From a bacterium (GTDB lineage Bacteria > Patescibacteriota > WWE3 > 2-01-FULL-39-13 > JAACPI01), in the NCBI GenBank assembly GCA_009995545.1, contig JAACPI010000002.1:2965-66964 (forward strand): 64,000 nt of DNA, in the 5' to 3' direction; not shown here. Continued below: a report on this DNA, generated by a model with database tools.

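Novelty: a csc-like locus with its own SipW-type peptidase, in a reduced-genome lineage, is unusual. It could encode an abundant surface fibre or adhesion complex.
How to check it: HMM searches with PF13731 (WxL), PF06030 (DUF916), PF11797 (DUF3324), TIGR02228 (SipW). Pairwise alignment of the three C-terminal domains. AlphaFold multimer of WxL-like + DUF916-like pairs. Proteomics of cell-surface fraction. Check conservation of the locus across related genomes.
What would refute it: No significant WxL/DUF916 HMM hits and no structural similarity; or the signal peptidase belongs to the ordinary LepB type; or the proteins lack signal peptides on careful prediction.
Basis: partly seen in the sequence, partly recalled or inferred. 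Interest (0 to 1): 0.75.

Follow-up and report, generated by a model that had tools for sequence, protein, structure and literature searches.

The TasA-like family of g1

Six genes form the locus, with those for the TasA-like protein g1 (42203-42814, 203 aa), the SipW-type signal peptidase g2 (42866-43417, 183 aa) and the large WxL protein g3 (43512-44939, 475 aa) on the plus strand, and those for two WxLIP-type proteins, g4 (44936-46117, 393 aa) and g5 (46125-47075, 316 aa), and the small WxL protein g6 (47134-47751, 205 aa) on the minus strand. The first-pass annotation counted g1, next to g3 and g6, as a third WxL protein, a reading which g1 itself contradicts and which is highly improbable. 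No similarity to g3 or g6 is seen outside the signal peptide, and a profile-profile comparison of the g1 family with nine aligned WxL-type domains matches 23 signal-peptide columns only, at a probability of 11%. The NNWSFNS block of g1, formerly taken for a WxL motif, carries the conserved Trp of another family. On sequence grounds, g1 does not belong among the WxL proteins.

Exhaustive scanning of 1.8 billion representatives with HMMER finds 43 relatives of g1, nearly all of which are ~200 aa long; a word-indexed homologue search returned three hits for g1 (two relatives) and two for g2. Four cysteines are nearly invariant in the family alignment, and the end of the signal peptide follows the consensus G-x-G-x-T-Y-A-x-F-T-S-N-x-V-T-I-x-x-N-T-x-x-T-G. 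The sole curated model to recur is TIGR04088 (“SipW-dependent-type signal peptide”), in 11 of 39 members and always below cut-off (best score 17.3 bits, cut-off 19). The family profile was compared with Bacillus subtilis TasA, whose mature part (28-261) was matched residue by residue to PDB 8aur and whose signal peptide (1-27) was an assumed sequence. This comparison gives a probability of 85% (E 5.8e-6) over 64 columns, signal peptide included, with the cleavage sites in register (TYA↓xF versus TWA↓AF) and an alignment extending as far as a common L-x-PG(D/E) strand. AlphaFold2 predicts a confident beta-sandwich for g1 (pLDDT 87.5) with the 39-sequence alignment, which was needed, as three sequences gave a pLDDT of only 32. 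Foldseek places AbpA first among the matches to this model, followed almost entirely by donor-strand-exchange pilins. Assignment of g1 as a SCPU, Csu or chaperone-usher pilin was dropped, since the locus lacks both chaperone and usher and the scores of TasA/AbpA are better. PDB-chain sequence searches with g1, g6, g3 and the g1-family and WxL-domain profiles gave nothing useful, and no further loci were found in genome or metagenome contigs with the g1 alignments.

Conservation in mature g1 peaks at residues 27-50; position P1 is Ala in 38/39 family members and P2' is aromatic in 30/39. In the monomer model no secondary structure forms at residues 20-46, and confidence is <50 at 22-31, ~63 at 31-40 and high again from 41. 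The donor strand of TasA comprises residues 28-38, just after the SipW cleavage site (PMC9674648), and Phe at P2' makes TasA a poor LepB substrate (PMC10269814). Alongside these features, the alternative that g2 is the only signal peptidase of the cell, and g1 a secreted protein which does not polymerise, appears improbable.

The signal peptidase and its partner

The earlier identification of g2 as an archaeal/ER-type signal peptidase holds: it scores 84.2 bits on TIGR02228 (against 51.85), with the bacterial-type model under its cut-off, and it has Ser47, His88, GDNN and two TM helices. SipW-type peptidases adjoining their substrates are the rule, and such a peptidase is the next gene after the g1-family gene in all other readable loci, namely L005 (a close relative), L009, L011 and the truncated L008 and L010. 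The peptidase of L009 (8711-9736, 341 aa, 100 bits on TIGR02228) has extra C-terminal hydrophobic segments, and that of L011 (1076-2602, 508 aa, 92 bits on TIGR02228) is fused to a C-terminal Lamin Tail Domain (PF00932, 52.9 bits); WxL or WxLIP genes appear neither in L009, with 16.7 kb of context, nor in L011. A metagenome scan with the peptidase alignment yielded 80 SipW-type loci, seven of which contain a g1-family gene, directly upstream of the peptidase in five. A neighbour with a TasA-type leader lies ≤4 kb from the peptidase in 41 of the 80, and the leader motif is ~8 times denser close to the peptidase than farther off; a Patescibacteria-type WxL or WxLIP gene occurs in none. Only in the window's organism and in L005 is the peptidase seen to adjoin a WxL cluster. 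The synteny of the g1-family/SipW pairs, and that of the peptidase-free WxL module, therefore make the peptidase the partner of the TasA-like gene, while its proposed role as private peptidase of a csc cluster is unsupported, as it tracks the g1 family and the WxL module occurs without it. For g1, fold and synteny are shown by these and the preceding comparisons, which also support a TasA-type leader.

Many of the human-gut and bioreactor SipW-type loci (L025, L049-L100) have two or three neighbours bearing TasA-type leaders, such as …STATYAWFT… and …GGTLALFTD…; the motif there reaches 13.6 per 100,000 aa ≤4 kb from the peptidase versus 1.6 farther away. A weak SipW-HMM match at 19347-19526 in the window is spurious and falls within a NUDIX-like gene.

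The strong Shine-Dalgarno sites described earlier for the two small genes, g1 and g6, are indeed present. That of g1, GGGGGTGAT, is, as the first-pass annotation indicated, shared with the HU gene (HU-type DNA-binding protein, 26533-26805, plus strand, ATG at 26533), and GGAGGTGAT, ahead of g6, is the sole perfect copy in the window. A stable stem-loop separates the g1-family gene from the SipW-type gene in 4/4 loci: the window (42816-42867, z -7.4), where its 3' arm extends to the peptidase start codon, L005 (1503-1586, z -6.5), L009 (8656-8714, z -3.7) and L011 (980-1063, z -4.1), the last two being unrelated in sequence to that of the window. None of the four has a U-tract, and the g1-g2 hairpin is thus not a classical terminator. 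A stem-loop between these genes is consistent with differential expression of an abundant subunit versus a catalytic enzyme. A promoter/terminator consensus scan gave matches no more frequent than chance.

The WxL/WxLIP module

For the remaining four genes, the first-pass assignments largely stand. The C-terminal WxL domain of g3 scores 39.4 bits (Pfam gathering score 25), and g6 is a clear homologue of this domain (BLASTP E 6e-12), having no Pfam match itself; its L012 homologue scores 24.7 bits on the WxL model. The second WxL motif proposed earlier lacks Trp in all aligned relatives. The DUF916-like nature of g5 is borne out by 43.2 bits on WxLIP_PGBD (former DUF916; threshold 27.3) and by its match to the recently solved Enterococcus faecium WxLIP1 (E 3e-4 alone, 7.5e-13 as a ten-sequence profile). 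Its paralogue g4 (E 6e-10) scores 25.4 bits, slightly below threshold. Both are anchored as described by a transmembrane helix at the C-terminus, and both begin with a signal-like segment, but the suggested DUF3324 (PF11797) matches neither, and no LPXTG protein is present at the locus.

Canonical WxLIPs stop at the TM helix, whereas g4 continues ~95 residues beyond it (44936-45220), with a sequence, …RRKQVKSINKKW…SRIH.ED…EVR.TFRDEISTLN…KKKK, conserved in L005, L012 and L016. This suggests that the tail is a cytoplasmic domain and that the helix lies in the bacterium's own membrane. The module order (small WxL, WxLIP, WxLIP with tail, convergent large WxL) is kept without a g1 or g2 homologue in L012, L016 and, partly, L013. 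L016, from Patescibacteria group bacterium UBA1400, is the closest GTDB locus, with 45% identity in g5 and the same four-gene order. This locus, along with general features such as low G+C and an uncultured source, makes the window's organism a probable member of the Patescibacteria. The possibility that all six genes build one integrated apparatus, in which g3 anchors g1 fibres as TapA would, draws on the common direction of g1, g2 and g3 and on the joint occurrence of all six in L005; it is nevertheless unlikely, in that either module is self-sufficient in other loci and g3 shows no sequence resembling a donor strand. The g1-like N-terminus of g6 was also considered as a TapA-like donor mimic and dropped, since L016, without g1, has the same g6 motif.

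Directly upstream of its small WxL gene, UBA1400 codes for a 164-aa protein (L016 4795-5289) with a signal peptide and C-terminal TM helix. Its weak match to g5 (E 2e-5) suggests that it could be the second domain of a WxLIP, encoded as a separate fragment.

The locus shows no break in composition (G+C ~33% across the window), and many metagenomic contigs and an NCBI genome carry it in identical form. Housekeeping genes flank it on both sides, with a cupin and a MacAB-like ABC exporter upstream and, downstream, genes for glucose-6-phosphate isomerase and glutamyl-tRNA synthetase. The exporter (HlyD-like adaptor, ATPase and FtsX permease) lies at 38427-41610, just upstream of the six genes. L013 has an ABC_tran and FtsX pair (6677-8576) between its small WxL gene and WxLIP genes, so that such a neighbour recurs in two of the four WxL loci seen. 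A 1727-aa protein is likewise encoded between the WxL genes of L013, and the window has a 1718-aa ORF at 5668-10824 (minus strand). A bacterial class A RNase P RNA lies at 37988-38325 (plus strand; 112.4 bits, gathering score 100), and the ORFs listed on top of it (38087-38345) are spurious. The 64-kb window contains no rRNA.

Proposed mechanism and relation to known families

Two separate devices can be envisaged. The g1 protein would be strongly translated, then exported and cut by g2, presumably after Ala26. Its freed N-terminal segment could then enter the sandwich of the following subunit, giving a fibre of the kind that TasA and AbpA form, with each subunit perhaps stabilised by two disulfides. 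If the WxL module works like its Firmicute counterparts, g5 and g4, held by their C-terminal helices, would present the small g6 and the large g3 at the surface, with a putative ligand-binding part in the N-terminal 330 residues of g3. Homology would also allow the WxLIP to donate a hairpin strand which completes the WxL sandwich (PMC10599100).

At the Pfam level, TasA homologues are on record for Patescibacteria (PMC9245690), and Pfam already identifies g3 and g5. WxL proteins are described as nearly confined to Lactobacillales and Bacillales (PMC10599100), and no paper linking them with Patescibacteria was found in the literature. The g1 family is new insofar as it is covered by no curated model, and the six genes together are divergent new representatives of kinds already known.
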